DNA of 64,000 bases from an uncultured Porphyromonadaceae bacterium. Lineage in GTDB: Bacteria > Bacteroidota > Bacteroidia > Bacteroidales > Muribaculaceae. Numbering within the stretch: the first letter of the stretch is position 1; every line of letters starts with the position of its first letter. Positions 23,302 to 58,905 of this stretch are shown piece after piece. The stretch covers positions 70,444-134,443 of the forward strand of contig CABUWI010000006.1 in the NCBI GenBank assembly GCA_902495245.1, read 5' to 3'. Both the position numbers and the translations under genes were made by a program. A model generated the notes under the pieces. That model made no database searches. It had not been told where the DNA came from and was given only the letters and a program-made list of their open reading frames with translations.

Positions 23302-23374
23302 GCCACAATAGCTCAGTCGGTAGAGCATTTCATTCGTAACGAAAAGGTCCGGGGTTCGAGCCCCCGTTGTGGCT
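23302..23374 (+). tRNA. tRNA-Thr (anticodon CGT)
   Basis: I folded the cloverleaf by hand. The acceptor stem is GCCACAA/TTGTGGC, the D arm is GCTC-AGTCGGTA-GAGC, the anticodon arm has loop TTCGTAA (anticodon CGT), and the T arm is CGGGG-TTCGAGC-CCCCG with discriminator T. Length is 73 nt with no encoded CCA. Confidence 0.9.
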
Positions 23375-26195: not shown

Positions 26196-26203
26196 TAACT
26201 TTG
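26196..26203 (+). promoter_or_regulatory. -7 box TAACTTTG for tRNA-Arg
   Basis: An exact TAnnTTTG match lies 18 nt upstream of the tRNA 5' end. Confidence 0.6.
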
Positions 26204-26221
26204 CGGTCGAAAATACCGACT

Positions 26222-26296
26222 GCCTCCGTAGTTTAATGGATAAAATAGAAGATTCCGGTTCTTCAGTTTAGGGTTCGATTCCCTACGGGGGTACCA
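26222..26296 (+). tRNA. tRNA-Arg (anticodon CCG), CCA encoded
   Basis: I folded it by hand. The acceptor stem is GCCTCCG/CGGGGGT with two G-U pairs, the anticodon stem is GAAGA/TCTTC with loop TTCCGGT (anticodon CCG), and the T arm is TAGGG-TTCGATT-CCCTA. The discriminator is A26293, followed by CCA at 26294-26296. Confidence 0.88.
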
Positions 26297-46800: not shown

Positions 46801-46949
46801 ACCACAACTCCAGGAAGAGTCTCGCCGTGATGGTCGGTAACCACCCCGGTCAGCACGCGTTCGGGGGCGGTCTCTTCGGCCGCCGCTGAAATCGGCGACA
46901 TCAAAAGACCCGCAAACAGTGCCGTGAGCAAAAAGACATAACGTATCAT
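43881..46949 (-). CDS. SusC/RagA family TonB-linked outer membrane protein
   Basis: It has a signal peptide, a CarboxypepD_reg domain (LTGVVTDHHGETLPGVVVKIK), a plug (GSVPGLIVTNSGELGSKPKIRIRGNQSL) and a large barrel ending in LNLSVTF. I chose the ATG at 46949 (MIRYVFLL) because a -7 box lies at 46972-46979, inside the longer track ORF. Confidence 0.9.
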   Translation of the reverse strand: MIRYVFLLTALFAGLLMSPISAAAEETAPERVLTGVVTDHHGETLPGVVVKIKSSPYGTMTDADGFYLLRGRFKRGAKIQFSCVGMKPVEFTYDGQEQQDAAMESDDNMLKEVVVSAESNINAIDIRSRSGVVQTVDMKRLNEKPMVDLGLALQGSVPGLIVTNSGELGSKPKIRIRGNQSLRTGDAANEPLYVLDGKVISSDAFNTLNPQDIREIKVLKDAAACALYGIKAANGVIEISSQRGTQSGGIDVTYSLNMGVTFKGRRGIHTMDSAEKLEFERLMGNPAAPGYRYSPDYYNRYERNNPRLQQLIAEGAATLDSLRAINTDWFDELMRLALYQSHNISVRGGNEKTSYFLSGNFSSQGGQVKGNNTLRGNLRLGIDQQLGSIGYFSFNMDGGYTETKSPNGSDFSPSSLVYNLNPYETPSGGKLWSYPNRTFNDLQKQFESNSNDKRGGASASINLRPFEGGEISAVAGLDYMVSEVVHFTPASSYSEQQSGFPAAELGRLSKSMNTVLNFSYNIRALYNKLFNDKHDLTLSLNHDYYLTDTDNLGITGYGVGNHASAALINQSITGSRKPAVASLKEKVVQLGVGAVAGYTFDHTYDLFATYKLDASSVLPSSKRWNSAWAAGLGWTPTQYNFLNGNPVLSRLNFKGSYGQTASLAGVSAAQTIGTFAYLEDTYGTQRLLQLLALYNTDLKPEHTTSIDAGVQLGLFRSVNIDFGWYRRETADALLDVPVASSNGFNMMKRNMGTLRNDGIEISASYTLPDIVRDFRFRLGASVAYNRNEVVDLYYADKIYTSESSLIPDFEVGKPYDMLYGLQWGGINAVTGLPVFIGAGGREIEPGKTKLTRDDFVEIGHLTPPYSGTVNLSLAWREFELDADFYWVAGGKRQYSYTYVRDRDNVNMNALAGLTQTMWLHRGDTDKQYASPFYSSSAIETLSYANTHNTGRSDYLRMSMLSFRYRFPRRILDRTHGVIKYASVALQASNLFTITPYDESDPETGQLGAAIQPVVTLNLSVTF

Positions 46950-46971
46950 GCAATCCATTTGTAAAGTTTTG

Positions 46972-46979
46972 CAAAAGTA
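46972..46979 (-). promoter_or_regulatory. -7 box TACTTTTG upstream of the SusC-like gene
   Basis: The reverse complement of caaaagta is TACTTTTG. It lies 23 nt upstream of the ATG at 46949. Confidence 0.5.
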
Positions 46980-47099
46980 CATATAATTTCACAAATAGCC
47001 AACATTTTGCCACATTTTAACCCTAATTTTTAACATTTGGAAATTTGCATATGGCATTTTTACCCACAAAATACTATTGCGGATATTGGATATTTTTTG

Positions 47100-47107
47100 T
47101 AAATTTG
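47100..47107 (+). promoter_or_regulatory. -7 box TAAATTTG, candidate promoter of the CHASE2-caspase operon
   Basis: It is an exact TAnnTTTG match on the plus strand within the AT-rich divergent region. It lies ~150 nt upstream of the ATG at 47258, which implies a long leader. Confidence 0.4.
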
Positions 47108-47257
47108 CGGCGTACAACACCAATCTCATGCTCACACAACATCACAAACACACTGCAAATCAACGTTTTATTCGTTTCTCGCAACAGGTTTGCATGAGCG
47201 CGGAACACCCTGCGCCTCGCCGTTGTGCGCGCTTTAACATACCTTTACAATAGCAGC

Positions 47258-48412
47258 ATGGGCGCAAATAAATCGAAAATCGGCTCTAACATATTGACGG
47301 CAACGCTGATTACGCTGCTGGCATTCGGTCTGTCGTTGCTTTTTTCTCAGCCGCTTGCTTTTTCGGCAGGCGCGTTGCTGCAAAGCGCCGACAAGCAGGA
47401 TTTCAACATGACCGACTTCTATAATATAGCGGCCGACGCAAGGCCGGTCATGGCGCTCGACACCAACATAGTAGTCGTTGACATCGCAAACACGACGCGC
47501 GACGACGTAACCGACGTGCTCGAACTGCTTGGCGACATGAACCCGCGGGCGGTCGGCATAGACATCACATTCAACGAGCAGCGCGAAGACGACGAACGGC
47601 TGCTTGAGGCCATTGACCGCTGCCCGAATCCGGTCCTGGCCGTAGGCGTGAGCGCCAAACCGACCGAACGCGACACTTTCATGGTCGACGATTTCTCATA
47701 TTTCTATCCGTTCAGCCGCGACTCGCGCACATACGGTGTCATCAACCTGCCGACCAAGTTCGACGGCGCCACGGTGCGCAACTTCCGTGTGGACTATACC
47801 GAGGCGGGTGGCCGTGAACTGCCGTCGTTCGCCCTGGCCGTTGCCCGCGTCGCCGACCCGCAGGCCGCCAAACGCGTCGAGGCGCGCGCCAACACGGTGG
47901 AGACCATCGACTTTCCGAGCCGCAGATTCACCGTCATACCCTGGACCGAACTGCCCGACCGGCCTGACGAAATCGACGGCAAAATCGTGTTGGTCGGCGC
48001 AATCGGCGAGCTGGGCGACGTTCATCGCACCCCGGTGAACGACAAAATGGCCGGCGTGATTATTCACGCCCACGCGCTCAGCACGATTCTGCGCGACAGT
48101 TTCTACACGGTGGCTCCGAAATTCGTCAACATCTTGCTGGCGTTTCTGATTTGTTTCTCACTGTGCTTCACCAACTTGCAGTTCAAAAGCCCGGCGCGCG
48201 GACTGTGGTTCCGCATTTATCAGATTGCCATGCTTTACCTGATGATTCGTCTCGGCTACTGGCTGTTTGTCGACAACCGCACAATCGTTGACTTTTCTTA
48301 TTCGATGCTCATGCTCGCTTTCGGCTTCTTCGCGTTTGACCTCTGGAGCGGCCTCACCCACTATATCAAACTGGCCTACAACCGAATTTTCTTCAATCAA
48401 TCACATAAATAA
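47258..48412 (+). CDS. stand-alone CHASE2 domain membrane protein (no output domain)
   Basis: It has an N-terminal TM helix (ILTATLITLLAFGLSLLF). CHASE2 blocks are IVVVDIANTTRDDV..LGDMNPRAVGIDITF, GVINLPTKFDGATVRNF and GKIVLVGAIGELGDVHRTPV..MAGVIIHAHALSTIL. Three C-terminal TM helices follow, and the protein ends ~14 aa after the last one. I prefer the ATG at 47258; the track ORF begins at a GTG at 47225. Confidence 0.8.
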   Translation: MGANKSKIGSNILTATLITLLAFGLSLLFSQPLAFSAGALLQSADKQDFNMTDFYNIAADARPVMALDTNIVVVDIANTTRDDVTDVLELLGDMNPRAVGIDITFNEQREDDERLLEAIDRCPNPVLAVGVSAKPTERDTFMVDDFSYFYPFSRDSRTYGVINLPTKFDGATVRNFRVDYTEAGGRELPSFALAVARVADPQAAKRVEARANTVETIDFPSRRFTVIPWTELPDRPDEIDGKIVLVGAIGELGDVHRTPVNDKMAGVIIHAHALSTILRDSFYTVAPKFVNILLAFLICFSLCFTNLQFKSPARGLWFRIYQIAMLYLMIRLGYWLFVDNRTIVDFSYSMLMLAFGFFAFDLWSGLTHYIKLAYNRIFFNQSHK

Positions 48413-48420
48413 GACCACAC

Positions 48421-49263
48421 ATGACACGCTTTTTATCAACAATCTTATTGCTCATAACCGCAGTCGTCGCCGTCCGCGCCGACTATAGCGTCCGAAGCGT
48501 ATCGGGCAACGTTTTGATTCAGAAATCGGGCAAGCAGACCGCCGCCACGACCGGAGCGAAGCTCGGCTCTAACGACGTCTTGATTCTTGAACGCGGCGCA
48601 AAACTGGAGATATTCGACAGCAAAGACTCGCAAATCTACACGGCCGATGCTCCGGGACAATTCACCGTTACCCGCATCATTTTCGACGCCCGCAAAAAGG
48701 CGCGCTCAAACTCGAGCGCGGTCCACGGCAAACTGCGCGTTACCAAAGACAATAAGGCCGAAGGCGTGGTCTACATCGAAAAGGGCAAGGTTACACGCTC
48801 GCTGGCAATCTACGACCCCGAAGCCCAGAACATTCAGATTGACACCGACCGCCTGAGCCGCCGCCTCTACACCATGCTCCGCAACGATTCGGCCATGTGT
48901 GCGGCCTCCGACCCCGGCGCTATCGTGCTCAATCAGCGCATCGACCCTGACGGCCTGGCCTTCATGGTGCAGAATTCGACGGAACACCCCGTCTATTTCA
49001 ACGTGTTCAAAATCAATGCCGAAAACGGCTCGGTTACCATCTCGGAGCTCGGTCAGCCCGTTGGCTGCTATGCCATTTTGCCGACTCAGTTCCTTGCCCG
49101 CGAACAGGGCGCCGGCCTCAACCCCTCCGAGCTGCACATTCTGATAATGACCGACTTCTATTTCGACATCGACGAACTGCTCGGCAAGCTCAACGCGCTC
49201 ATCGACTCCAAGCCCGAAATAAACGAGCCTGAAAGCACGCCGCTCTATCTGCTGCCCCTCTGA
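48421..49263 (+). CDS. secreted protein, FecR-like N-terminal beta-sandwich + DUF4384-like C-terminal region
   Basis: 280 aa with a signal peptide (LLLITAVVAVRA). The segment VSGNVLIQKSGKQTAATTGAKLGSNDVLILERGAKLEIFDSKDSQIY resembles the FecR sensor fold. The segment LAFMVQNSTEHPVYFNVFKINAENGSVTISEL..LHILIMTD resembles DUF4384. Confidence 0.5.
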   Translation: MTRFLSTILLLITAVVAVRADYSVRSVSGNVLIQKSGKQTAATTGAKLGSNDVLILERGAKLEIFDSKDSQIYTADAPGQFTVTRIIFDARKKARSNSSAVHGKLRVTKDNKAEGVVYIEKGKVTRSLAIYDPEAQNIQIDTDRLSRRLYTMLRNDSAMCAASDPGAIVLNQRIDPDGLAFMVQNSTEHPVYFNVFKINAENGSVTISELGQPVGCYAILPTQFLAREQGAGLNPSELHILIMTDFYFDIDELLGKLNALIDSKPEINEPESTPLYLLPL

Positions 49264-49330
49264 GGCCGGCCCTCCCTACCCCCCTCGCGAACAAACTATT
49301 AAACCGTTATCACATTCATTTTTTCTTTCA

Positions 49331-51433
49331 ATGAAAACACTGCTTATCCGTGCTATTATTCCGCTGTGTGCCGTTTTGGGCACAGTGCAGACAGTCATGG
49401 GTCAGGACGAGACCTCGCCGCTCCCCGCAACCGCCCAAAGCCCTGACTATCATTTCAAGCTGACAACCAATCCGACGGGTCTGACTCGCTTTTTCTACGC
49501 AATCTACCCCAACGACCAACGCTCAATCCTGAACACTCGCGGCACGCGCATCGCCGAGTTCAACGCCGACATCGAATCGGTGGTCGTGAACCCCTCCGGA
49601 CTTAACTTCACCGTCATCACCTCGGGCAAGAAAGGCACCGCCTACGTTGCCAGCACCTACGAACAAGACGAAATCAAATTCAAGTTCAACCGCAAGAAGT
49701 TCGGCCAGCCCCGCTCGGCCGCCTATACGCCCGACGCCCTGAACCTGCTCATCGCCACCGACACCACCCTCTACGTTCTCGACGCTCGCAAGTTCAAGCC
49801 CAAAGGCACGATGAAGCTCAACCACCCCGCCCGCCTCATGAAGCTGAGCGGCAACGCCTACCATCTGGCCACGGCCAACGAGGGCGAAGTTACCGTCTAC
49901 AACTACGAAGACAAAACCGTGCGCCACCACTGGAACTTCGAGTCGCCAGTAACCGACCTGCAGTTCTCGCCCGACGACACCGAACTCGCAATCACCTGCG
50001 GCGACGGCTCGGTCAACATTTACGACACCCGCTCTTTCACAATCAAGAACTCGCTTGAAAACGTGGGCGACGCCCTTTCGTCGTCCTACAACCCCGACGG
50101 CAAATACATGGCCGTGGCCCAGTCGCCCCACAGCATTGTCGTGGTCAACCTGCTTGAGCCCGAAACCGACCGCGAGGCAATCAGCGTGCCGGCCGGCAAT
50201 GTCCGCGAAGTCGTCTTCCTGCCCAACGTCAAGAAGGAGACCCTTCTGGCCTACACCACACAGCGCGCCGTCGATATCCGCAACATGAAAGACCTCGCGC
50301 CCTACTATTCGAAGCTGGTCGACGACGAAGTGAACCGCCGACTCAACGAATGGCTGAAAATGATGCCCGACGAGACGCTTGAGGAGTATCAGGCCCGTGT
50401 CAACGACGAGAGCCGCGCGCGCCAGCGCCGAATGCTTGAAGACGAAATCGCAACCGGTTTCGCCCCCGACATGCTCACGATGGCCGAAATCACCCTCGGT
50501 CAGTATGACAAACGCCACGAACTGCTCGAGGTGAACTTCAACAACATGCCGTCAATCTACCTGCCCGTCAGCAACGAAGACATCGAGGCATTCCACAGTG
50601 CCGGCGACCTTCAGTTCACCAACGCGAAATATACCGTCGGCAACAACGACCGCTTCGAACTCATCTATGCCGAAGTCGTCAACTCGGCCGACGGCAAGAC
50701 ATATATCTACAACAACATTGACCGCGTGGCGCTCAACTTCATGGCCAACGAGCCCGAAGAGGAAGTGTCGATCGAGCTTATCAAACAGCAGCAGATGGAA
50801 GAAATCAAGCTGCGCGAGCTCCAGCAGCAGATTGTCGAAGAGGCAAAGAGCCGCAACGTCATCTCAGACCACACCGGCATCACGGTCAACACTGAGGTCG
50901 TGCCCGACTACGATGCCAACGGCAACCGCATTCTCAACTACAAGGTAAACTACACCTACGAGGTTGAACCCGAATTCACCGCCCGCGAAGACTTCGGCCC
51001 CGGCAAATATCACATCAACGAATCGGGCGCCGCCCAGTCAATGCTCGAAATCGTGCGCAAGTCGATTGACGGCGAACTGGCGCGCTATGTCAAAGAGGGC
51101 AAGAAGGTCAACGTGCGCATTTCGGGCACCGCCGACTCAAGCCCCATCGTGGGCCGCATCATCTACGACGGCAGCTACGGCACGTTTGAAGACGAGCCCG
51201 CCTACAACAACGGCGAACTCACAACCATCACCGTCATGCCCAAAGGCCGCATCACCGAGAACAAGCAGCTCGCCTTCCTGCGCGCCCAGGGTGTGAAGCA
51301 ATATCTCGAAGAGAATATCAAAGAACTGCAGCAAATGAAATCGAACTACCGCATTGACATCAATGTGGCCGAAGGCAAGGGCAGCCAGTTCCGCCGCATC
51401 ACGACGGAGCTCACGTTTGTCGACGCTTTCTAA
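49331..51433 (+). CDS. secreted WD40-like beta-propeller protein with coiled-coil linker and OmpA-like C-terminal domain
   Basis: 700 aa with a signal peptide. WD-like blades include VTDLQFSPDDTELAITCGDGSVNIYDTRSF and SSSYNPDGKYMAVAQSPHSIVVVNL. The middle is acidic and helical. The C-terminus VRISGTADSSPI ... NKQLAFLRAQGVKQYL resembles the OmpA/MotB peptidoglycan-binding motif. Confidence 0.6.
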   Translation: MKTLLIRAIIPLCAVLGTVQTVMGQDETSPLPATAQSPDYHFKLTTNPTGLTRFFYAIYPNDQRSILNTRGTRIAEFNADIESVVVNPSGLNFTVITSGKKGTAYVASTYEQDEIKFKFNRKKFGQPRSAAYTPDALNLLIATDTTLYVLDARKFKPKGTMKLNHPARLMKLSGNAYHLATANEGEVTVYNYEDKTVRHHWNFESPVTDLQFSPDDTELAITCGDGSVNIYDTRSFTIKNSLENVGDALSSSYNPDGKYMAVAQSPHSIVVVNLLEPETDREAISVPAGNVREVVFLPNVKKETLLAYTTQRAVDIRNMKDLAPYYSKLVDDEVNRRLNEWLKMMPDETLEEYQARVNDESRARQRRMLEDEIATGFAPDMLTMAEITLGQYDKRHELLEVNFNNMPSIYLPVSNEDIEAFHSAGDLQFTNAKYTVGNNDRFELIYAEVVNSADGKTYIYNNIDRVALNFMANEPEEEVSIELIKQQQMEEIKLRELQQQIVEEAKSRNVISDHTGITVNTEVVPDYDANGNRILNYKVNYTYEVEPEFTAREDFGPGKYHINESGAAQSMLEIVRKSIDGELARYVKEGKKVNVRISGTADSSPIVGRIIYDGSYGTFEDEPAYNNGELTTITVMPKGRITENKQLAFLRAQGVKQYLEENIKELQQMKSNYRIDINVAEGKGSQFRRITTELTFVDAF

Positions 51434-51450
51434 TTATTCGTCATAAGCCA

Positions 51451-54102
51451 ATGAAGTCCTCACATCTACTGACAATTGCAACCTTCAGCGTCATGGCCGC
51501 CGGCACGGCCATGGCGCTTTCATCGCACCTCGACCCCCTGCCCGGAGCCGACGCCCCCGAAATGCCGGAACTGACCTCCGGCATGCTGACCGGCGAAGGC
51601 GCCGAAGCCGCCGAAGATTCGGCTGTAGTCCTGTCGCCCGACTCGCTCGCCACTCTGGCCGGCGAGGCGTTCAAGGCCTACCGCGTCAGCAAATTCGACG
51701 GCGAGGAAGACGCCGTGCTCTATCCGCGCCTCTACGACCTCTACGAACAGGCTCTCGCCGCATTCGACGCTCAGCCGAACGCCACCCGCGGCTTCATGCA
51801 GTGTCGCGACATTCTCAAGCAAATCGACGACGAACTGCTGCGTGGCGCCTTCTTTTACTCGTCAAACAACCGCCGCGAAGAGCTCAACAAGTTTGCGCGC
51901 GCATATCTCGACATTCAGCAGCTGCCCCGCATGGAGGGCGAACGCTGGAAGCGCGACGAGCAGGTTTATCCCTTCATCTGCTACATCGCCGCCTCGTCGG
52001 CCTATAACGCCTCCGAGTGGGACAAGGCCATCGACTATTTCAAACTCTTCCTTTCGACCGGCGCGTCCGACCGCCGCGAGCAGGTCTACCAGTTCATGGG
52101 CCGCGCATGCCTCAGCGCCCGCAACTATCCGCTGGCAATCACCGTGATGCAGGAGGCCATGAAAGCCTATCCGCAAAACGAGATGTTGCCCATGATTGGC
52201 ATTCAGGCATGCGTTGACGGCGGCCACGGCCAGTTCCTGCAGGATTTCCTGACCCGGGCGCTCGAGCTCAAGCCCACCGACGTGCAGCTCATGACCCTTC
52301 AGGGTCAGCTCTATGAAGACCGCAACGACTATCGCGCTGCCATTGCCCTCTTCAACGACCTTGACCGTCTGAAGCCCAACTCGATGAGCATCACCAAGCA
52401 TCTGGGCACGAACTACTATAACATGGCCGTCAGCGCCTTCAACAACGCAATCAACGAGCCTAACGAAAAAGAGGCCAAACGCCTGCGCCGCCAGGCTCGC
52501 AACTATTTCGACGCCGCCGCCCTGAAGTTCCGCGCTATTCTCGAGTCGGACCCGACGGCCACAAAGTATATGCGCTCGCTCGGCGTCTGCTACCTCTGTC
52601 TTGAAGACAAGTCTTCGTTCTCTGAAATCAACGACAAACTCACGGCTATGGGCGAAGACCCGCTGGCCGACGTGTTCATGCCCCCGATGATGACCTATTC
52701 CGACTCGGGCAACAAGAACTTCGCCACTTCCTCGCTCGCCGACGACGGCAACGGCCTCGACGCGCCCTCCTATCGCGACTTCGCCACCCGTTACATCACC
52801 GAACGTCTCGACAAGTGGTCGAAACGCGGCGAGTTCGAACCGACCGACAAATATCAGCAGCGAGTCAACGAAACGACTCTCGCCGCCGAGGGCAAACGCC
52901 TGCAGCGAAGCGCCGCCGAGGAATATCTGAACCGCTACGGCGGCAATCTGCGCCTCGACGGACTGAAACTGATGCCCTACGACGCCACCAACGAAGTGTT
53001 CAAGATTGAATCGAGCTATGGCCCCATCATTCTGCCCGTGCCGCTGAAAAACGGCGAGGCCGAAAACTTCAAGGCCACGTTTGCCGGCGTGAACATTCGC
53101 ACTCCCCGCTACTTCATCGACGAAGAGGGCGTGAAAGTGGCCTCGGTTACTTTCGTAACTCCCGGCGGACGCAGCTACACCTACGACAACAGCAAGGCCC
53201 TGGCCTATAACGACGTGCCCGACATCGACATCGACTACAACTCGATTCTGCGCAATCCGGCCAAAAAGCAGACGCAGTCGTCAGGAAGCGAAACCGTTAC
53301 TATACGCCACAAAAGCGACGTCGACAAGGACATTCCGCAAAACCGCAATAAAGACGCCAACCGCCTGGCGCTCATCATTGCCAACGAACACTACCACGCA
53401 ACGGCCGACGTGGCCTCCGCAATCAACGACGGCGAGGCTATGGCCGAATACTGCAAACTGACGCTCGGCATTCCCGACAACAACGTCGAGCTGCTGACCG
53501 ACGCCACCCTGGGCCGCACACTCGGCGCAATCATCTCGCTCAAGGACAAGGTGAACGCACTCGGCGGCGAGGCAGACGTGCTGGTCTACTACGCCGGCCA
53601 CGGCCTACCCGACGAGCGCACCAAAGACGCCTACATTCTCCCCGTCGACGGCACCCCGACCTCTAACGCCACCTGCCTGTCGCTGGGCAAGCTTTACGAC
53701 GAGCTCTCAAACATGAAGGCAAAAACCGTTACCGTTCTGCTCGACGCCTGCTTCAGCGGTGCGCAGCGAAAGGGCGGCGGCGAAATGATCAGCGACGCCC
53801 GCTCGGTTGTCATCAAACCGAAAGAATCAGCGCCCAAGGGCAACATGCTGGTGCTCAGCGCTGCCTCGGGCAACGAAACGGCTCTGCCCTATGCCGAGAA
53901 GAACCACGGCCTCTTCACATACTACATTCTGAAACACCTCCAGGCCACCAAGGGCAACACAACGCTCAAGGAGCTGAGCGACTATGTTATCTCTAACGTG
54001 AAGAAGCAGAGCGTGTTCATCAATTCCAAACTCCAGACACCCACCGTTACCACCTCGGGCAACATGGGCGAACTCTGGCAAACCCGCAAGCTGAAGCCAT
54101 GA
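51451..54102 (+). CDS. secreted TPR-repeat protein with C-terminal caspase (peptidase C14) domain
   Basis: 883 aa with a signal peptide (FSVMAAGTAMALS). TPR-like repeats span about aa 100-400. The C14 p20 core is RLALIIANEHY...DVLVYYAGHG (catalytic His) ... VTVLLDACFSG (catalytic Cys). Confidence 0.82.
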   Translation: MKSSHLLTIATFSVMAAGTAMALSSHLDPLPGADAPEMPELTSGMLTGEGAEAAEDSAVVLSPDSLATLAGEAFKAYRVSKFDGEEDAVLYPRLYDLYEQALAAFDAQPNATRGFMQCRDILKQIDDELLRGAFFYSSNNRREELNKFARAYLDIQQLPRMEGERWKRDEQVYPFICYIAASSAYNASEWDKAIDYFKLFLSTGASDRREQVYQFMGRACLSARNYPLAITVMQEAMKAYPQNEMLPMIGIQACVDGGHGQFLQDFLTRALELKPTDVQLMTLQGQLYEDRNDYRAAIALFNDLDRLKPNSMSITKHLGTNYYNMAVSAFNNAINEPNEKEAKRLRRQARNYFDAAALKFRAILESDPTATKYMRSLGVCYLCLEDKSSFSEINDKLTAMGEDPLADVFMPPMMTYSDSGNKNFATSSLADDGNGLDAPSYRDFATRYITERLDKWSKRGEFEPTDKYQQRVNETTLAAEGKRLQRSAAEEYLNRYGGNLRLDGLKLMPYDATNEVFKIESSYGPIILPVPLKNGEAENFKATFAGVNIRTPRYFIDEEGVKVASVTFVTPGGRSYTYDNSKALAYNDVPDIDIDYNSILRNPAKKQTQSSGSETVTIRHKSDVDKDIPQNRNKDANRLALIIANEHYHATADVASAINDGEAMAEYCKLTLGIPDNNVELLTDATLGRTLGAIISLKDKVNALGGEADVLVYYAGHGLPDERTKDAYILPVDGTPTSNATCLSLGKLYDELSNMKAKTVTVLLDACFSGAQRKGGGEMISDARSVVIKPKESAPKGNMLVLSAASGNETALPYAEKNHGLFTYYILKHLQATKGNTTLKELSDYVISNVKKQSVFINSKLQTPTVTTSGNMGELWQTRKLKP

Positions 54103-54983
54103 CCCGCCGACACAAACTGATTGCGCTCGTTGCCGCCGGCCTCCTGTCGGCCGCCGCCCCGCTCACGACTGCCGCCAAAGGCGTGCAGACACTGACGGGC
54201 GAGGCCACATACTATGGCGACGCGACCGACTCGCCCGCCGAGGCCAAGCGCAAGGCCCTTGACCTGGCCCGAATCAACGCCCTGGCCCGCGAGTTCGGCA
54301 CCGTGCTCAGCCAGACAACGGTGAGCCGCGACGTGGCCGACAACGGCGCCGAGCGGCAGTTCTTCTCCTCGCTGTCCGCCTCCGAGGTCAAGGGCGAATG
54401 GATTGCCGACGAGGGCGAGCCGAAGTTCACCATCGAGCTTGACTCTGACGGCCACTACGTGGTTCATTGCCGCGTAACCATCAAGGCGAAAGAACTTTCA
54501 AACAAAGCCGCCGACTTCCACGCCACCGTTCTGCGCAACGGACTCACCGACAAACACGCCTCGACCGAGTTCAAGACGGGCGACGAGATGTTTCTGAGCT
54601 TCCGCTCGCCGGCCGACGGCTACGTGGCCGCCTATCTCGTGGCGGGCGACGACGTACTGACCCTGCTCCCCTACACATCGTCGGCCTCGGGCAAATGTCC
54701 CGTGCGCCACGACCGCGACTACATCTTCTTTTCCGCGCCCGACGGCGACAAAGAGTTCGGCACGGTTGACGAATATCTGATGCAGACCGACGGCGCTTTC
54801 GAGCACGACCGCCTCTACGTCCTCTTCTCGCCCAACGAGTTCTCGAAAGCGCTCGACCGCGCAAACGGCGACTCCATGCCGCGCGTGCAGCCCTACGAAG
54901 ACTTCGTCAGGTGGATTGCCAAACTGCGCCGCGCCGACGACGAGATGGGCATGAAAGTTTTCAACCTGACAATAAGCCAATAA
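54099..54983 (+). CDS. secreted LPP20-like + DUF4384-like protein
   Basis: 294 aa with a signal peptide. The N-terminus GEATYYGDATDSPAEAKRKALDLARINALAREFG is LPP20-like. The C-terminus FKTGDEMFLSFRSPADGYVAAYLVAGDDVLTLLP...DRLYVLFS is DUF4384-like. The start overlaps the caspase gene's stop by 4 nt. Confidence 0.5.
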   Translation: MTRRHKLIALVAAGLLSAAAPLTTAAKGVQTLTGEATYYGDATDSPAEAKRKALDLARINALAREFGTVLSQTTVSRDVADNGAERQFFSSLSASEVKGEWIADEGEPKFTIELDSDGHYVVHCRVTIKAKELSNKAADFHATVLRNGLTDKHASTEFKTGDEMFLSFRSPADGYVAAYLVAGDDVLTLLPYTSSASGKCPVRHDRDYIFFSAPDGDKEFGTVDEYLMQTDGAFEHDRLYVLFSPNEFSKALDRANGDSMPRVQPYEDFVRWIAKLRRADDEMGMKVFNLTISQ

Positions 54984-54988
54984 ACACC

Positions 54989-55024
54989 AATTAGTCCATT
55001 TAGTCCAATTAGTCCAATTAGTCC
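54989..55024. repeat. 4 x 9-nt tandem repeat (aattagtcc) inside the operon
   Basis: The units are aattagtcc, atttagtcc, aattagtcc and aattagtcc. The tract begins 6 nt after the preceding stop codon and ends 19 nt before the next ATG. Confidence 0.85.
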
Positions 55025-55043
55025 AATAAAATTTTTTAAGATT

Positions 55044-55685
55044 ATGAAAAAATTAGTCATGATGATGGCCGCACTCTGGCTCGCATTCGGAGCCATGGCC
55101 GCTGCACCCGAGCTCACCAAACAACAGCAGAAGCTCGTGAACAAAGAGGTCAAAGCAAAGATGAAAGACTACAAGAAAGAAGGCTGGAAAGTATTCGGCA
55201 GCACACGCACCCTCGAGGGCATGCTGACGCGCCACCTCAGCGAACTCGAAGCCGCAGGCGACGACGCCTTTGAAATCGTGGGCTACGCCAATAACTTCAA
55301 GAGCAAGAGCGTAGGCCACCAGCAGGCCGTCAACAACGCCTGCATCACCTACGCAGGTCAGGCCGGTTCGTCGCTGCGCGGCAACATCACCACCGACATC
55401 AAGGCCAACGGCTCGGACGAGGCCGACGAGTTCGAACACTTCTATGCCGCCTACCAGCGCCTCGTAGAGCGCGAAATCAAAGACGAGATGAAAGAGAGCA
55501 TCGCCCTGATTCGCGACATGGGCAACGGCGCATATGAAATGCAGGTCTACTTCATCGTCGGCCAGGATTCGGCCGCAAAGGCTCGCCAGCGCGCCGCCGA
55601 GGCTGCCATGAAAGACAGCGAAATCGCCCAGAAGCACTCTGCCACCATCTCCGACTACGTGCGCAAGGCGTTTGACCGTCAGTAA
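55044..55685 (+). CDS. hypothetical secreted protein (possibly LPP20-like fold)
   Basis: 213 aa with a signal peptide (AALWLAFGAMAAAP). It is Lys/Glu-rich and helical, with a central VGYANNFKSKSVGHQQAVNNACITYAGQAG segment. I have no confident family assignment. Confidence 0.5.
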   Translation: MKKLVMMMAALWLAFGAMAAAPELTKQQQKLVNKEVKAKMKDYKKEGWKVFGSTRTLEGMLTRHLSELEAAGDDAFEIVGYANNFKSKSVGHQQAVNNACITYAGQAGSSLRGNITTDIKANGSDEADEFEHFYAAYQRLVEREIKDEMKESIALIRDMGNGAYEMQVYFIVGQDSAAKARQRAAEAAMKDSEIAQKHSATISDYVRKAFDRQ

Positions 55686-55706
55686 TTTCCACTCCCCCGA
55701 AACCCT

Positions 55707-57155
55707 ATGCGATACGTTCCGGCTTTCATTCTTCTGTCATTGGTCGGCCTGACGGCATCGGCCCAGAGCGCCGTCGACGATTTCGAGAAGTTCCGCAGCG
55801 AGGTCATGGGCAGCTATGCCGGCTTCCGCAACGACATTCTCAGCGACTACGCCAAATTTCTTGACGGCATCTGGGAGGAACACGAGCGCTTTGCAGGCGA
55901 GAGCCGCAATGCGCGCCCCAAGCCCAAAGAGGCACCCGTGGCGCCCGCGCGCGAAACGCCGCCCGCGCCCGCGGCACTGCCCGCGCCCAAGCCTGAAGAA
56001 CGCAAGCCCGAACCCGCAGACAATACGCCCGCCCCGCTGCCGGACCTCAAACCGGCAGCCCGCGGGGGCGCGTCGGTCTCGTTCGATTTCTACGGTCTGC
56101 CGCTGCAAATCGACGAGCGCCGACTCATGCTCAACCGCCGCCTGGCCAACGGCTCTGACTTCGCCGCCCAGTGGCGACGACTGCTCAACGACCCCGCCGC
56201 GGCCGACATGACCGCACGTCTCGCCGACCTGGCCCGCCGACTGGGGCTGAACGACTATCTCACCTTCGAACTGGTGCGCCGCTACGTCAACGGCCGCTAT
56301 GCCGACTCCCACTCGACGACGCGCACCGCCCTTGCCCACTTCCTGCTCACGGCCATGGGCTTCGACGTGCGCCCCGCCCTGTCGGGCGACGACGGCGTAC
56401 TGCTCGTGCCGGTGAAACAGACCGTCTTCGGCCGCCCATACATGGTCATGAACGGCGAAAAATTCTATGTCTTCGCCGACTCTGACAACTTCGCGGCCTC
56501 AAACCGCATCTCAACCTGCAACATTCCGGAAAACACCGAGACCGGCCGCGCCATAGACATGCGCTTCACCCGCCCGCTGAATCTGCCCGAAAAGCCCTAC
56601 GAGTTCAACATCGAGGCCAACGGCCTGAAGCTCAGCGGCACCGTCAACGAAAACATCTATCCCCTGCTCTACCGCTATCCGCAGACCGACATGGCCGTCT
56701 ATGCCACATCGATCATTGACCCCGCGCTGCGCGCCCGTCTGGTCGAGCAGCTCAAGGCCCAGCTTGACGGCCGCCCCGGACTCGACGCCGTCAACACCCT
56801 GCTCGGGTTCACGCAAAACGCCTTCGACTATGCCTCCGACGAGGTTTCACACGGCTTTGAAAAGCCCTACTTCATCGAAGAATGGCTCTACTATCCCCAA
56901 AACGACTGCGAAGACCGCGCCGTGTTCTACACCTACATGCTCTGGAACGTGCTCGGCGTCGAAAACCAGCTGCTCACCTACCCCGGCCACGAAAGCTCGT
57001 CAGTCAGGCTCGACGAGCCGCTTAACGGCGACAATTATCAATTCGACGGCCGCACATTCTACATCTCCGACCCGACCTACATCGGCGCCACCACCGGCAT
57101 GTGCATGCCCGACTTCGTCTCCGAGTCCCCCGTAATCGAATTCCACTACAAATAA
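55707..57155 (+). CDS. secreted protein with Pro-rich linker and transglutaminase-like Cys-His-Asp core
   Basis: 482 aa with a signal peptide. It has a low-complexity segment PKPKEAPVAPARETPPAPAALPAPKPEERKPEP. The C-terminus NDCEDRAVFYTYMLWNVLGVENQLLTYPGHESSSV...FYISDPTY matches the C..RA..F....G.....V....GH....D transglutaminase-like protease pattern. Confidence 0.55.
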   Translation: MRYVPAFILLSLVGLTASAQSAVDDFEKFRSEVMGSYAGFRNDILSDYAKFLDGIWEEHERFAGESRNARPKPKEAPVAPARETPPAPAALPAPKPEERKPEPADNTPAPLPDLKPAARGGASVSFDFYGLPLQIDERRLMLNRRLANGSDFAAQWRRLLNDPAAADMTARLADLARRLGLNDYLTFELVRRYVNGRYADSHSTTRTALAHFLLTAMGFDVRPALSGDDGVLLVPVKQTVFGRPYMVMNGEKFYVFADSDNFAASNRISTCNIPENTETGRAIDMRFTRPLNLPEKPYEFNIEANGLKLSGTVNENIYPLLYRYPQTDMAVYATSIIDPALRARLVEQLKAQLDGRPGLDAVNTLLGFTQNAFDYASDEVSHGFEKPYFIEEWLYYPQNDCEDRAVFYTYMLWNVLGVENQLLTYPGHESSSVRLDEPLNGDNYQFDGRTFYISDPTYIGATTGMCMPDFVSESPVIEFHYK

Positions 57156-57171
57156 CGATATTTCATAATCA

Positions 57172-57200
57172 AGGCGGACGCACTGCTCGTGCGTCCGCCT
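57172..57200. terminator. bidirectional hairpin between convergent genes (GGACGCAC/GTGCGTCC family)
   Basis: A 12-bp stem pairs aggcggacgcac (57172-83) with gtgcgtccgcct (57189-57200), and the loop is tgctc. An A/T-rich sequence follows (gattatttatt). Confidence 0.65.
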
Positions 57201-57225: not shown

Positions 57226-58905
57226 TTATTTCACCGTGAGTTTGCGGCCGTTGTGAATATATATGCCGCGAACCGAGGGCTTTGAGACGAGGCGGCGGCC
57301 GTCGATTGTAAACCAGGCGCCATCAGCGGCGGCGGGTGCGGTTTCAATCGACTCTATGCCCGACTCTTCTTTTTCCTCTTCGGGGTCATATTTCGAGAAA
57401 GTGATTTTCTTGTCTGCCACGGTTGCCTTGAGCGCTCCCTCGCAGTTGAGCGGGGCCTCCATCTGGCGCCACTCCTTCTCGCCGGGCAGCATATACACGG
57501 GCGTAACCACATAGTTGCCGTCTTTCATGACGCCGGGCATGTTGACGTTGATAGTGCGATAACCGGCCGAGGCGGGAATGCTGCGGTTCTCGGTAAACGA
57601 CATGTGGCGCGTGGCGCCTGCGCCGCCGACAAAGGGCCTGATGCGCACGCCGATTTTGATGCCGCCGGGCATGTTTTCAAACGACTGGTTGATGAAACCG
57701 CCGCCAAACGTAACCTGCTCTCCGAAGCCTACAGTGGCGGGCGAAGCGGTGAACGACTCGGCGCATACCATCACATATTGTATCTGCGAGTCGGGCTGCA
57801 GTTTCTGAATGCCGATAATGGCGTCTTGTTCGTAGTTATAGCCGCCGTTGCCGCCGCCCACACCGGTTGCGGCGGGATTAAGAGCCGTCAGCGCGAAATA
57901 GCCGTCAGACACGCCGCTCCAGCCCCAGTTGAAGTGGAAGAAGCCGTCTTCGGCCCTGTAGCCGTCGCAAACGAACTCATGGCCGCCACCGGCTTTGGTC
58001 TTGCCGCTGTAAACCACCGGACGGCCCGCAGCCAGTTCGCCATAAATCAGGTCGGTCCAGTCGTCAAGGGTGTAGCGGTTGCGCTCGGCCATTCTCATAG
58101 CCTTGTCATATTTGAAATATCTCATCAGCGCCGTACCCACCGATGCGCTGGTCGCGCCGCTCTGGTTCGTATTATAGCCCATGTTGACGCTGACGCCTAT
58201 GGTGTACATCAGGGTGGCCACGGCGTCGATTTCGGCGTCGGTCGATGCCGACGAATATGTGTCGGTCATATTGGCCCAGTCGAACTCGGTTTTCGAGAAG
58301 TCGGCCGAGAGTTGCTGACCGCCGCGTTCCCAGTTATAGGAATACGAGCCTTCGCCGACATCGGGCCACTTGTGGAAGTTCATGACCTGAGCCATGGCCG
58401 TGGCCACGCAGCCGGTCATGCAGCGCTTGCCTGAAAGTTCGGGGCACTTGGCGTTATACGGAGCCATCTGGTTCCACTGCGACGTAATCATCGGCGCCAC
58501 GTCTACGCGCGACGCGGGCTCTTCGGCTTCGTCAGCCGCAGCCTCATCATAGGCCTGCGCGCCGGCATTGACGGCTGCCTCGATTTCGGCCGCGTAGAAT
58601 TCGAGCCACGCGGCCAGCGCGGGGTTGGCTTCGAGGTCAAAAGTGCCGCTCTCGGCATATCCGAGCAGCGGTGCGGCAACATCGTCTGAGGGCAGAATCA
58701 TATAGCCGCTCCCGGTCGAAAAGACGTAAAGATTCGGCAATTCGGCAATCGGTGTCAGCGCCTGACGCGTGCCGTCAACCGCCGCATGCTTGCGCAGTGC
58801 GCCTGACTTTCCGAGACGGGCAAGGGCCTCGGCCGGAGTGAGCTCGGCGGCATTGGCCGACGCGAGTCCGCACAGAGCCACGGCAAAGAGTGATAATTTT
58901 TTCAT
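57226..58905 (-). CDS. C10 family cysteine peptidase (streptopain-like) with Spi-inhibitor-like N-terminal region and T9SS C-terminal sorting domain
   Basis: 559 aa with a signal peptide. The prodomain pattern is LYVFSTGSGYMILPSDDVAAPLLGY. The catalytic Cys context is QWNQMAPYN..C..GCVATAMAQVMNFHKWP and the His context is GGHEFVCDGY..FHFNWGWSG. The C-terminus GAWFTIDGRRLVSKPSVRGIYIHNGRKLTVK is like a type A T9SS CTD. Confidence 0.85.
   Translation of the reverse strand: MKKLSLFAVALCGLASANAAELTPAEALARLGKSGALRKHAAVDGTRQALTPIAELPNLYVFSTGSGYMILPSDDVAAPLLGYAESGTFDLEANPALAAWLEFYAAEIEAAVNAGAQAYDEAAADEAEEPASRVDVAPMITSQWNQMAPYNAKCPELSGKRCMTGCVATAMAQVMNFHKWPDVGEGSYSYNWERGGQQLSADFSKTEFDWANMTDTYSSASTDAEIDAVATLMYTIGVSVNMGYNTNQSGATSASVGTALMRYFKYDKAMRMAERNRYTLDDWTDLIYGELAAGRPVVYSGKTKAGGGHEFVCDGYRAEDGFFHFNWGWSGVSDGYFALTALNPAATGVGGGNGGYNYEQDAIIGIQKLQPDSQIQYVMVCAESFTASPATVGFGEQVTFGGGFINQSFENMPGGIKIGVRIRPFVGGAGATRHMSFTENRSIPASAGYRTINVNMPGVMKDGNYVVTPVYMLPGEKEWRQMEAPLNCEGALKATVADKKITFSKYDPEEEKEESGIESIETAPAAADGAWFTIDGRRLVSKPSVRGIYIHNGRKLTVK

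Follow-up and report, generated by a model that had tools for sequence, protein, structure and literature searches.

The question raised by positions 47258-57155 of the window (the whole 64,000-nt stretch analysed) is whether the seven genes lying there, g1-g7, form one operon, and what a set of envelope proteins that includes a CHASE2 protein, an orthocaspase and a transglutaminase-fold enzyme may do together. The ORF list showed seven ORFs on the + strand with gaps of 8, 67, 17, -4, 60 and 21 nt, the start of g5 overlapping the g4 stop by 4 nt. Public gene calls place the g1 start at the ATG of position 47258, for a product of 384 aa. A single copy of TAnnTTTG, TAAATTTG, was found on the + strand between 47100 and 57200. 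It lies in an AT-rich stretch between divergent genes (46983-47257), with a GC trough of 0.46 versus about 0.60, and may act as the operon promoter. The hairpin after g7 is sited between g7 and the convergent C10 peptidase gene. The T-run 3' of its stem is weak (GATTATTTAT), and we regard it as a putative terminator. A sequence-only reading of this DNA had described the same seven co-directional ORFs, gaps, single box and terminal 12-bp hairpin, and all of these were reproduced. Because of the tight spacing, the single promoter-like box and the terminal hairpin, the seven genes are best explained as one self-contained operon (Table 1).

Table 1. Predicted features of the g1-g7 locus (positions are those of the window).
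Feature	Position (nt)	Strand	Description
Promoter-like box	47100-47107	+	TAAATTTG; matches Bacteroidetes -7 consensus TAnnTTTG
g1	47258-48412	+	inner-membrane CHASE2 protein, 384 aa; ORF span 47225/47258-48412
g1 TM1		+	residues 12-30
g1 periplasmic CHASE2	47492-48154	+	residues 79-299; Pfam E = 4.9e-26
g1 three further TM helices	48122-48337	+	residues 289-360
g2	48421-49263	+	secreted partner of g1, 280 aa; signal peptide
g2 small beta-sandwich	48484-48666	+	N-terminal, residues 22-82; helix next
g2 basic linker	48718-48816	+	residues 100-132, conserved, predicted disordered; ...VYIEKGKVTRSLAIYDP
g2 Ig-like beta-sandwich	48919-49257	+	C-terminal, residues 167-279
g3	49331-51433	+	secreted scaffold, 700 aa
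g3 WD40-type beta-propeller	49664-50263	+	about residues 112-311; several Pfam models, down to 2.4e-14
g3 central domain common with g4	50240-50725	+	residues 304-465; coiled-coil-like stretch after
g3 OmpA-like domain	50993-51316	+	C-terminal, about residues 555-662; ~35-residue insertion
g4	51451-54102	+	secreted TPR-orthocaspase, 883 aa
g4 TPR array	51982-52506	+	about residues 178-352; Pfam
g4 central domain common with g3	52684-53199	+	residues 412-583
g4 Peptidase_C14	53362-54054	+	residues 638-868; Pfam E = 4.8e-20
g4 His717 codon	53599-53601	+	dyad; checked in sequence
g4 Cys767 codon	53749-53751	+	dyad; checked in sequence
g5	54099-54983	+	secreted protein, 294 aa; alpha/beta N-terminal half
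g5 DUF4384 beta-sandwich	54570-54728	+	from about residue 158; position is that of the Pfam match
g6	55044-55685	+	secreted Lys/Glu-rich protein, 213 aa
g7	55707-57155	+	secreted transglutaminase-fold thiol enzyme, 482 aa; signal peptide, long helix, Pro-rich linker, middle alpha/beta domain, catalytic core
g7 Pro-rich linker	55884-56066	+	residues 60-120
g7 catalytic core	56724-57152	+	about residues 340-482
g7 Cys401 codon	56907-56909	+	triad; checked in sequence
g7 His428 codon	56988-56990	+	triad; checked in sequence
g7 Asp455 codon	57069-57071	+	triad; checked in sequence
Terminator-like hairpin	57172-57200	+	12-bp stem, 9 G-C pairs, 5-nt loop

The g1-g7 order is seen again in 15 or more distinct Muribaculaceae loci, whose flanking genes differ; identities are 39-75%. 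Housekeeping genes flank the operon, and seven different flank contexts were observed among these loci. Since the same order is kept in all of these contexts, the genes can be read as a single unit, and all seven proteins have similar evolutionary rates over the same loci. The neighbourhood check also showed that the operon, of which we found no published description, is widespread in Muribaculaceae, contrary to the earlier statement that none with this composition was known in Bacteroidales. In the window, the operon has the gene of a SusC-like TonB-dependent receptor on one side and that of a secreted C10 (streptopain-like) peptidase on the other; at locus L005, a C10 peptidase is also present about 4 kb downstream of the operon.

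All seven products have a basic-then-hydrophobic N-terminus, beyond which g2-g7 contain zero further hydrophobic 19-mers (both by hydropathy only). Together with the spacing and the conserved order, these profiles support the earlier view of a single operon whose products are all extracytoplasmic. Hydropathy of g1 showed four peaks (residues 12-30, 289-307, 320-338 and 342-360), followed by a basic tail of 24 residues, DLWSGLTHYIKLAYNRIFFNQSHK, without output domain. A C-terminal domain is absent from all g1 orthologues (379-408 aa). The Pfam match, the four TM helices and the short tail agree with the CHASE2 protein lacking an output that had been proposed.

The gene g2 lies directly after g1 in all loci whose contig reaches past g1. 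These include the remote loci L030-L040 and L027, the latter with only the g1-g2 pair visible and the contig ending 91 bases after g2. Fusions of g1 and g2 were found in six protein clusters (50% identity), and their topology fits, because the signal peptide of g2 would then be the fifth TM helix. A possible pair of output-less CHASE2 and g2-like proteins was also detected in Bernardetia (Cytophagales; hhalign E = 8.5e-5). These linkages support g2 as an obligate secreted partner of g1. A precedent exists in S. meliloti, where CHASE2 cyclases respond to a protein signal via an envelope partner (PMC13001267). The partner of CHASE2 had been called FecR-like. A dedicated secreted partner does exist, but it is not detectably FecR-like, with zero FecR matches in 33 family members, 53 remote relatives and 4 further partners. 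Its C-terminus had been likened to DUF4384, and hhalign against the g5 family aligned the signal peptides only.

The AlphaFold model of g2 had a pLDDT of 79.6 overall and above 90 in the domains. Foldseek matched its N-terminal domain to 5ix9 (TM 0.72, rmsd 1.7). The NCBIfam model retention_LapA matched g2 at 2.2e-4, with a score of 21 bits versus a cut-off of 50, and 15 of the 33 family members matched it. The domain thus shows a weak similarity to the LapA/MpIBP retention module. In the linker, K121, G122, V124 and R126 are invariant, and G122 and R126 are kept even in remote g2 relatives; it contains no LapG-type di-alanine site.

The WD40 propeller of g3 and the TPR array and C14 domain of g4 had been recognized correctly from the letters. 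Both YYAGHG and DACFSG are present in g4, and these motifs, with the His/Cys dyad, are invariant in 20 homologues. The nearest solved relative was Arabidopsis metacaspase-9 (E = 0.0023), and g4 has Asp at the position Cys-2, like metacaspase and MALT1. A domain of ~160 aa is common to g3 and g4 (hhalign probability 96.8%, E = 2.5e-10). A PDB profile search gave no match for g3. The proposed OmpA-like end of g3 was weakly but recurrently matched (11/14 family members, best 0.0021), D602 and R651 being invariant, and through this end g3 is probably tethered to peptidoglycan. For g5, the DUF4384 assignment held: the match was 0.053 in the window copy, but 12/15 family members matched, best 4.9e-07. 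The LPP20 assignment did not, as it was found in 1/15 members at E = 0.25. In Prevotella-type loci, too, g5 goes with g4-like caspases.

No domain matches to g6 were obtained in Pfam, NCBIfam or PDB. In the window, as in some further lineages, it lies 5' of g7, with pairs in L066, L079, L103 and L108; only the L079 pair is good (95 bits, versus 19 bits in the other three). A Pfam search with the window copy of g7 gave nothing above noise, and DUF553 matched weakly in 13 of 38 g7 family members. The residues Cys401, His428 and Asp455 are invariant, Cryptobacteroides included. The AlphaFold model (pLDDT 85, pTM 0.84) had best Foldseek matches that were all of transglutaminase fold: 3isr, LapG (4u65_E, 4fgo and 4fgq, probability 0.97-1.0), 3kd4, TglA and PNGase. 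For the Lap likenesses of g2 and g7, Foldseek E-values were above 0.01, and the target-normalised TM-score was about 0.45 for LapG. The invariant triad and the modelled fold, which matches cysteine proteases, confirm the predicted transglutaminase-like Cys-His-Asp enzyme.

The most widespread part is g7, which occurs in Alistipes, Bacteroides, Parabacteroides, Prevotella and Cryptobacteroides, and whose family forms very large clusters with more than 567 metagenome loci. In about 70 of 83 g7-anchored loci, g1-g2 is absent. g7 goes with CHASE2 and g2 without caspase, as in the Cryptobacteroides operon (L030-L040; c1-DUF5683-CRD/BACON-g7-CRD-CHASE2-g2), or with caspase and DUF4384 without CHASE2, as in Prevotella-type loci (g5-caspase-g7). 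Among the remaining partners of g7, all of envelope type, are CarboxypepD_reg, BACON and DUF5683 proteins and a lipoprotein. Parts are also missing or broken in some loci: L016 lacks g3 and g4, L002 and L007 lack g6 and g7, and L022 keeps g1 and g2 alone; g3 is frameshifted in L007, and in L024 g1 is truncated and g6 split. A second caspase gene, encoding an LRR-caspase, adjoins the operon in L024. The operon is best explained as a mosaic of three modules also found apart in other Bacteroidales: (i) the output-less CHASE2 protein g1 with g2; (ii) the WD40 scaffold g3, the TPR-orthocaspase g4 and a DUF4384 adaptor, g5; and (iii) g6 and g7, of which g7 links modules (i) and (ii). g7 had been cast as a side effector; it is instead the part common to both CHASE2-g2 and caspase-DUF4384 loci.

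The earlier proposal that CHASE2 gates the caspase was only partly supported. Its elements (output-less CHASE2, a partner and an exported caspase) are present, but gating by CHASE2 and its partner does not agree with the comparative data: CHASE2-g2 occurs without caspase (Cryptobacteroides L030-L040, L016 and L022) and caspase-DUF4384 without CHASE2. Our tentative reading, at somewhat less than even confidence, is that the operon encodes a thiol-protease machine of several subunits that lies entirely outside the cytoplasm, in the Muribaculaceae cell envelope, with CHASE2-g2 as membrane receptor or tether. The data show only which parts there are, where they are located and how they are linked genetically; the steps that follow are inferred from this. 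CHASE2 would be a membrane receptor or tether for the protein g2 and would not serve a signalling enzyme in the cytoplasm as its input. On an envelope cue, the g1-g2 pair would dock or release the periplasmic proteases, and the output would be periplasmic proteolysis. The conserved basic g2 linker (KGKVTR) is a candidate first substrate, and the g4 caspase would probably prefer Arg or Lys at P1. Such a machine would recall the LapD/LapG/LapA switch, with its membrane receptor, transglutaminase-fold protease and retention-module substrate, although the operon has neither c-di-GMP input nor giant adhesin. The similarities of g2 to LapA and of g7 to LapG, and the conserved G122 and R126 of the g2 linker, favour this analogy, but both similarities are weak. 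A dedicated enzyme-substrate relation of g7 and g2 is not required, because g7 is mostly found without g1-g2 and some g1-g2 loci have no g7 nearby (L002, L007 and L022).

A constitutive role in envelope biogenesis or maturation is rather unlikely. Here the thiol enzymes would serve to process surface, outer-membrane or peptidoglycan-associated proteins, or to cross-link them, as in gingipain-dependent type V pilin maturation or PorU/PorE-type periplasmic assemblies, and the CHASE2-g2, WD40/OmpA-like and TPR proteins would be anchors spanning inner membrane, peptidoglycan and outer membrane, without sensing. The vertically widespread g7 family in gut Bacteroidales genera, the envelope-type partners of g7, the housekeeping flanks and the similar rates of all seven proteins are consistent with this, and the set of TPR, propeller and OmpA-like domains recalls PorE and Tol-Pal. 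However, pilin or T9SS cargo substrate genes are not obvious in the operon, no T9SS C-terminal domain was detected, and CHASE2 is otherwise a sensory domain. The frequent loss or breakage of parts (L002, L007, L016, L022 and L024) argues against an essential role. Loss, pseudogenes and module shuffling between lineages are consistent with an envelope conflict or programmed-death module, in which CHASE2 and its partner sense phage attack or envelope damage, the released exported caspase destroys envelope proteins and g7, the transglutaminase-like enzyme, serves as a further effector. Caspase, TPR and WD40 domains belong to the vocabulary of prokaryotic conflict systems, a generic PADLOC caspase model matched g4 at 1.3e-10, and the LRR-caspase gene of L024 points the same way.

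We nevertheless consider this conflict role, which the sequence-only reading had entertained, improbable. PADLOC gave that generic model only and no system; NTPase, nuclease or other toxin and defence-island neighbours are absent; IMG/VR viral contigs yielded zero relatives; there are zero hypervariable components, and the neighbours are housekeeping genes in seven different contexts. The occurrence of CHASE2-g2 and caspase without each other also speaks against it. Far less probable still is proteolysis for nutrient acquisition, with the secreted peptidases degrading host or dietary proteins for uptake. The SusC-like receptor and C10 peptidase flanking the window operon, and the C10 gene near the L005 copy, would suit such a role, but these neighbours are not kept in other loci and the unit contains no SusC/SusD pair. 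The scaffold domains, the membrane CHASE2 protein and the domain that resembles peptidoglycan-binding ones speak for a periplasmic complex bound to the cell and against secreted digestive enzymes.

The studied operon consists of seven forward-strand genes (g1 to g7), whose ORFs and intergenic gaps of 8, 67, 17, -4, 60 and 21 nt were found as claimed by the sequence-only reading. A divergent region with a GC trough lies 5' of g1. The one promoter-like box proposed there (TAAATTTG) is the sole forward-strand TAnnTTTG between 47100 and 57200, and the proposed hairpin was recovered 3' of g7. A search of the whole window against Rfam gave no match in the leader or the operon. Every product starts with the claimed export signal, a basic-then-hydrophobic N-terminus, and by hydropathy g2 to g7 each have a single hydrophobic segment, at the N-terminus. 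Our data place all seven products outside the cytoplasm, with the signal peptides judged by hydropathy. Public collections contain the identical proteins, which come from a Muribaculaceae MAG and are labelled only "CHASE2 domain-containing", "caspase family" or "hypothetical".

Coordinates of the operon genes, of surrounding features in the window and of features on comparison contigs
Feature	Sequence	Position	Strand	Description
g1	window	47258-48412	+	384 aa, CHASE2 protein
g2	window	48421-49263	+	280 aa, secreted partner of g1
g3	window	49331-51433	+	700 aa, WD40 protein
g4	window	51451-54102	+	883 aa, TPR-caspase
g5	window	54099-54983	+	294 aa, DUF4384 protein
g6	window	55044-55685	+	213 aa, small secreted protein
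g7	window	55707-57155	+	482 aa, transglutaminase-fold thiol enzyme
Divergent region	window	46983-47257		5' of g1, GC trough
TAAATTTG box	window	47100-47107	+	promoter-like
Hairpin	window	57172-57200		12-bp stem, 3' of g7
SusC-like receptor	window	43881-46982	-	TonB-dependent; divergent, upstream of the operon
TACTTTTG box	window	46972-46979	-	promoter-like
Cysteine peptidase	window	57226-58905	-	secreted, streptopain-like; convergent with g7
872-aa protein	window	59077-61695	-	secreted
tRNA gene	window	23302-23374	+	stretch with upstream motif 23271-23374
tRNA gene	window	26222-26293	+	stretch with upstream motif 26196-26293
LRR-caspase gene	L024	11794-14304	-	second exported caspase, adjoins the operon
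OEP/TolC-family fragment	L030	11064-11711	+	215 aa, 3' of the g2-like gene
P0344	L029	846-2027		stretch with a remote g2 relative

Homologues of g4, g2 and g7 were looked up, species-representative genomes were scanned with the g1 alignment, and each of the seven proteins or its HMM was then run against all retrieved loci. The expected co-conservation was borne out: g1 to g7 recurred with their order kept, and with 39-75% identity, in 15 or more distinct loci of Muribaculaceae. The genome-contig scan used subfamily-specific patterns (DFN[ML]TDFY), so its 16 matches understate the distribution. The flanks vary from locus to locus (for example RecR...MIP/GH43, M16 peptidases, FtsX/DHFR, DUF3943/PRTase, GH97/FolB), and in the window the neighbours are a C10 peptidase gene and the gene of a SusC-like receptor. 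The composition varies as well. Two loci (L002 and L007) contain g1-g5 alone, L016 has g1, g2, g5, g6 and g7 without g3 and g4, L022 has g1 and g2 alone followed by a GH106 gene, and L023 carries a divergent g6-g7 pair 5' of g1. Frameshifted or truncated genes were seen in L007 and L024. The full operon is present in at least one isolate genome (L019, 'Barnesiella sp. WM24'), so genetics may be feasible.

In L024, from one Muribaculaceae MAG, the second caspase gene encodes BspA-type LRR_5 repeats and Peptidase_C14, together with the central region found in g3 and g4 (g4 HMM score 378). The g1 of this locus is truncated (306 aa) and its g6 is split.

The g1 protein was confirmed as CHASE2 (PF05226; E = 4.9e-26; score 92 bits, cut-off 26.3). 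Hydropathy peaks put its TM helices at residues 12-30, 289-307, 320-338 and 342-360, and the CHASE2 domain forms the periplasmic loop between TM1 and the C-terminal TM bundle. The lack of an output domain also held: the last TM helix is followed by a 24-residue basic tail, and none of the orthologues (379-408 aa) has an output domain. CHASE2 is likewise the sole domain in the Cryptobacteroides (390 aa) and Bernardetia (405 aa) copies. A hidden caspase fold in CHASE2, pairing with the caspase, was considered and rejected (hhalign of g1 against g4, probability 0.1%).

No Pfam domain was found in g2. It had been read as FecR-like, and PF04773 matched neither the window copy nor the 33 family members (E <= 10), the 53 remote relatives (E <= 0.01) or 4 further partners (E <= 1). 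FecR and PupR structures were also missing from the top 50 Foldseek matches of the g2 model, and the FecR assignment is rejected at the sequence level. A DUF4384-like C-terminus had been suggested too; hhalign against the g5 family aligned the signal peptides only, and in the AlphaFold model the C-domain is a generic Ig/PapD-like sandwich. In the model (mean pLDDT 79.6, each domain above 90), a helix and a linker connect a small beta-sandwich at the N-terminus (residues 22-82) with the Ig-like C-terminal sandwich. The linker (residues 100-132) is disordered in the model yet conserved, with K121, G122, V124 and R126 invariant. Residues 23-86 matched the NCBIfam LapA retention module (NF033682) at E = 2.2e-4, scoring 21 bits where the cut-off is 50; this is the best of the weak matches in 15 of the 33 family members. 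The N-domain superposes on 5ix9 (Foldseek, TM 0.72, rmsd 1.7 A), the domain that anchors the ice adhesin of Marinomonas.

A profile search of 1.84 billion representative proteins returned 528 relatives of g2, and six of them are CHASE2-g2 fusions of 650-690 aa. By the Rosetta-stone argument, these fusions indicate that g1 and g2 function together. In the fused proteins the former signal peptide of g2 would cross the membrane as a fifth TM helix, taking the chain back to the periplasm. Remote g2 relatives also lie directly 3' of an output-less CHASE2 gene in L027 and in Cryptobacteroides (L030-L032), and Bernardetia (Cytophagales) possibly has another such pair. Our results showed that the g1 protein is tied to g2 and cannot signal into the cytoplasm.

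Two single relatives of g2 have other surroundings. The gene of P0344 overlaps by 4 nt the next one, which encodes a TPR protein (TPR_12, 9.3e-14); the contig is short and has no CHASE2 gene before P0344, and the arrangement may be a further variant of the pairing. In P0078 (386 aa, on a 3963-nt contig) the g2 linker and the beginning of its C-domain (60% identity) lead directly into a caspase domain in which YYAGHG and DACFSG are both intact. This protein could be a genuine deletion fusion or an assembly chimera.

The middle of the operon encodes the caspase and scaffold proteins. For g3, Pfam supported the WD40-type propeller. The OmpA-like end stood only in part: PF00691 matched 11 of the 14 C-termini weakly (best E = 0.0021), but all matches are below the cut-off. 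D602 and R651 are invariant in this C-terminus. When it was compared with a genuine OmpA protein by hhalign, the N..L..RA..V..YL helix aligned alone, at 2% probability, and its profile was negative against PDB sequences. The TPR and C14 caspase domains of g4 were upheld together with the catalytic dyad (4.8e-20), both residues of which are invariant: H717 of YYAGHG and C767 of DACFSG. The closest solved relative is Arabidopsis metacaspase-9. Asp765 occupies the Cys-2 position as in Arg/Lys-specific relatives, and with R773, R784 and K791, invariant past the catalytic Cys, it gives the sole hints of orthocaspase-type behaviour, namely autoprocessing and Arg/Lys specificity. A central domain of about 160 aa is common to g3 and g4 (hhalign probability 96.8%, E = 2.5e-10); it is novel and had not been noticed before.

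DUF4384 (PF14326) in g5 proved clear at the family level, with 12 of 15 members matching (best 4.9e-07). LPP20, also claimed for g5, was reached by one of the 15 members at E = 0.25 and is not supported; FlgT_N was found in two. Searches of Pfam, NCBIfam and PDB profiles gave no recognisable domain for g6, and hhalign aligned it with g5 at 5% probability. Homology of g6 to the Cryptobacteroides lipoprotein c1 was rejected (hhalign probability 0.2%). The profiles of g2, g5, g6, g7 and the g3 C-terminus gave nothing useful against PDB sequences.

A transglutaminase-like Cys/His/Asp core had been proposed for g7. The fold and the triad were supported, but membership in the Transglut_core or LapG sequence profiles was not. 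The ordered triad C401/H428/D455 is invariant in 38 homologues and in Cryptobacteroides. In the AlphaFold model (pLDDT 85, pTM 0.84) the top PDB fold matches all have the transglutaminase fold: 3isr (a putative cysteine protease of Cytophaga), LapG (0.97-1.0), 3kd4, TglA and PNGase. The Foldseek probabilities reach 1.0, though the E-values are above 0.01. By sequence, the window protein had no significant Pfam match and no match in NCBIfam or the PDB; the transglutaminase-like DUF553 model was reached by 13 of the 38 members, at E >= 0.014. Our data show one conserved operon that encodes two thiol-peptidase folds with intact catalytic residues and several protein-binding scaffolds.

More than 567 loci were found in a metagenome scan anchored on g7. 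Family HMMs were used to type 83 g7 loci, of which 80 were kept from the scan and 3 came from Cryptobacteroides. Eleven are of the Cryptobacteroides type including CHASE2-g2, about 25 have the Cryptobacteroides-type upstream genes without CHASE2-g2, and 13 are g5-caspase(-caspase)-g7 loci without g1, g2 and g3. Further types are g6-g7 pairs and tandem g7 genes. The gene order in Cryptobacteroides is lipoprotein, DUF5683, CarboxypepD_reg/BACON, g7 homologue, CarboxypepD_reg, CHASE2 and g2-like. Its g7 homologue is full-length (E = 2.5e-73), the operon has no caspase, and the CHASE2 and g2-like pair stands at its end. By cluster name, the g7 loci belong to Alistipes, Bacteroides (muris, nordii), Parabacteroides johnsonii and Prevotella, and all clusters are "hypothetical" save one UniRef label, "Transglutaminase domain-containing protein". 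These locus types across Bacteroidales indicate that the Muribaculaceae operon is a mosaic of [g1 g2], [g3 g4 g5] and [g6 g7], and g7 is the common denominator. One member (DAG95609.1) of the Alistipes homologue cluster P0401 is labelled 'Herelleviridae sp.' in NCBI nr; this is probably a mis-binned bacterial contig.

The operon was compared with the Lap system of Pseudomonas fluorescens and Legionella. Like LapD, g1 sits in the inner membrane and has a receptor domain in the periplasm; g7 is a predicted periplasmic transglutaminase-fold Cys-His-Asp protease with LapG among its best fold matches; the small N-terminal beta-sandwich of g2 resembles a retention module, with a linker after it; and the whole activity is extracytoplasmic. 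In contrast, CHASE2 replaces the LapD periplasmic domain in g1, and the HAMP/GGDEF/EAL c-di-GMP receptor is missing. The g7 protein lies outside the LapG sequence family and has extra domains within its 482 aa. With 280 aa and no di-alanine site, g2 does not belong with the giant adhesins that type I systems secrete, and the operon adds caspase, WD40 and DUF4384 proteins. No c-di-GMP-binding LapD (HAMP-GGDEF-EAL), type I secretion or TolC-like LapE was found among the seven products when the operon and its flanks were examined. The features that define Lap are absent (c-di-GMP receptor, type I secretion, giant adhesin, di-alanine site), and we regard the operon as an analogue of Lap, not a member. 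LapA-type retention modules plug a TolC-like pore. In L030 an OEP/TolC-family fragment follows the g2-like gene, and it is absent from this place in L031 and L032.

With the CHASE2 cyclases (S. meliloti CyaD1/CyaD2/CyaK), kinases and GGDEF proteins, g1 shares the domain and the topology of TM1, periplasmic CHASE2 and three TM helices. Those receptors have a cytoplasmic output domain, whereas g1 and every orthologue have only a short tail. The secreted partner of g1 has two domains and, in some cases, is joined to the C-terminus as a fusion. The S. meliloti cyclases sense a plant protein, relayed by the outer-membrane partner NsrA (PMC13001267). This relay parallels the protein partner g2 and is the best functional precedent for CHASE2.

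The g4 protein has the C14 p20-type domain, His-Cys dyad and Asp at Cys-2 of prokaryotic caspases (orthocaspases, metacaspase-like C14). TPR, WD40 and DUF4384 are known companions of bacterial caspases, and in reviews CHASE2 and DUF4384 appear only as companions of some cyanobacterial orthocaspases (PMC7475262). It differs in its company, since the operon also encodes a transglutaminase-fold enzyme and the CHASE2 membrane protein, and in that TPR and WD40 are on separate proteins, g4 and g3, which have the central domain in common.

PorE (PG1058, type IX secretion) and Tol-Pal (TolB, CpoB, Pal) use a periplasmic vocabulary of TPR, beta-propeller and OmpA-like domains. Similar scaffold domains occur in the operon, with CarboxypepD_reg in the Cryptobacteroides variant. 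In the operon they are divided among separate proteins and accompanied by proteases and CHASE2. The neighbourhood of the operon has no T9SS or Tol genes, and the likeness is at the level of domain vocabulary. We rate the operon as related to known periplasmic regulated proteolysis and to prokaryotic caspase modules.

We tentatively favour an envelope protease machine with a CHASE2-g2 receptor or tether and Lap-like logic, a reading that we consider possible but short of probable. In it, CHASE2-g2 would act as the membrane receptor or tether, g3 would anchor the assembly to peptidoglycan and hold g4 via the common central domain, and the output would be proteolysis within the envelope, with the basic g2 linker as candidate first substrate. 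A logic like LapD/LapG/LapA is suggested because g2 has a retention-like N-domain, g7 has a LapG-like fold, and g1, g2 and g7 are linked in two Bacteroidales families; the Lap-type similarities of g2 and g7 are weak. The operon could instead encode a constitutive envelope-maturation machine, which seems to us not very likely, and digestive proteolysis is highly improbable.

The sequence-only reading, in which CHASE2 and a FecR-like partner gate the exported caspase, is distinctly unlikely in our view when taken as a conflict or programmed-death module. The caspases of NTPase-driven conflict systems come with STAND, NACHT or AAA NTPases in the cytoplasm, but g4 has a signal peptide and no NTPase partner, Pfam and NCBIfam detected no NTPase domain in the operon products, and there is no toxin in the operon. 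PADLOC-DB v2 yielded no defined system; its matches were a generic model for caspases (1.3e-10) and two stray ones that are weak. The flanks are housekeeping genes, no relatives were found when IMG/VR viral contigs were searched for g7 and g1, no component is hypervariable, and the caspase and CHASE2 modules each occur without the other.

The favoured envelope protease reading may be extended. CHASE2 would then be a membrane receptor for the protein ligand g2 rather than a small-molecule sensor with a cytoplasmic enzyme; with the transglutaminase-fold protease, the pair would form a nucleotide-free, LapD/LapG/LapA-like periplasmic switch across Bacteroidales, which in Muribaculaceae would also control an exported orthocaspase on peptidoglycan-tethered WD40/TPR scaffolds. 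We consider this extension unlikely as it stands, and the chance that the operon represents a distinct class of extracytoplasmic signalling is similarly modest, though real. If true, a signalling pathway would both start and end outside the cytoplasm. CHASE2, a domain with few known ligands, would gain a concrete protein partner (strict adjacency and six natural fusions) and would be able to work without cytoplasmic output. A bacterial caspase that is catalytically intact by its residues would reside in the periplasm, apart from the NTPase-driven cytoplasmic conflict systems with which caspases of this kind are commonly associated, with candidate substrates and scaffolds encoded beside it. The g7 family would be a very common unannotated family of transglutaminase-fold thiol enzymes and the hub of several envelope operon types, in the dominant gut genera Bacteroides, Prevotella, Alistipes and Parabacteroides and in Muribaculaceae. 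In the full-text literature we found no operon linking CHASE2 with FecR, CHAT or caspase proteins, and no paper on the system itself. Every domain family is known already; their assembly is not.

The surroundings of the operon in the window were also inspected. The cysteine peptidase that is convergent with g7 matches Peptidase_C10 (2.7e-75) and carries a Spi/I69 inhibitor prodomain at its N-terminus; a C10 peptidase is also found about 4 kb 3' of the operon in L005, and elsewhere it is not a conserved neighbour. The 872-aa protein has no Pfam match and contains an internal tandem duplication of about 270 aa. In its translation, '...DIKTTDATISITPS...GYFYD.KTKAAF...VVEKQIQAWTNAAAWYDDTTWQEMME.NRKKGAEEFSAREF.YEPLS...YVVYAYALDAEGNVTVPVTTKEFTT.APVPSANTFT' is present twice and is followed by a third, diverged copy. 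The SusC-like receptor has CarboxypepD_reg and Plug domains. The TACTTTTG box lies within the first codons of its longest ORF, so the real start is probably a downstream Met (MIRYVFLL...). Ahead of the two tRNA genes, TAACTTTG stands 18-23 nt upstream of each, a clear example from this genome of the Bacteroidetes -7 promoter motif.
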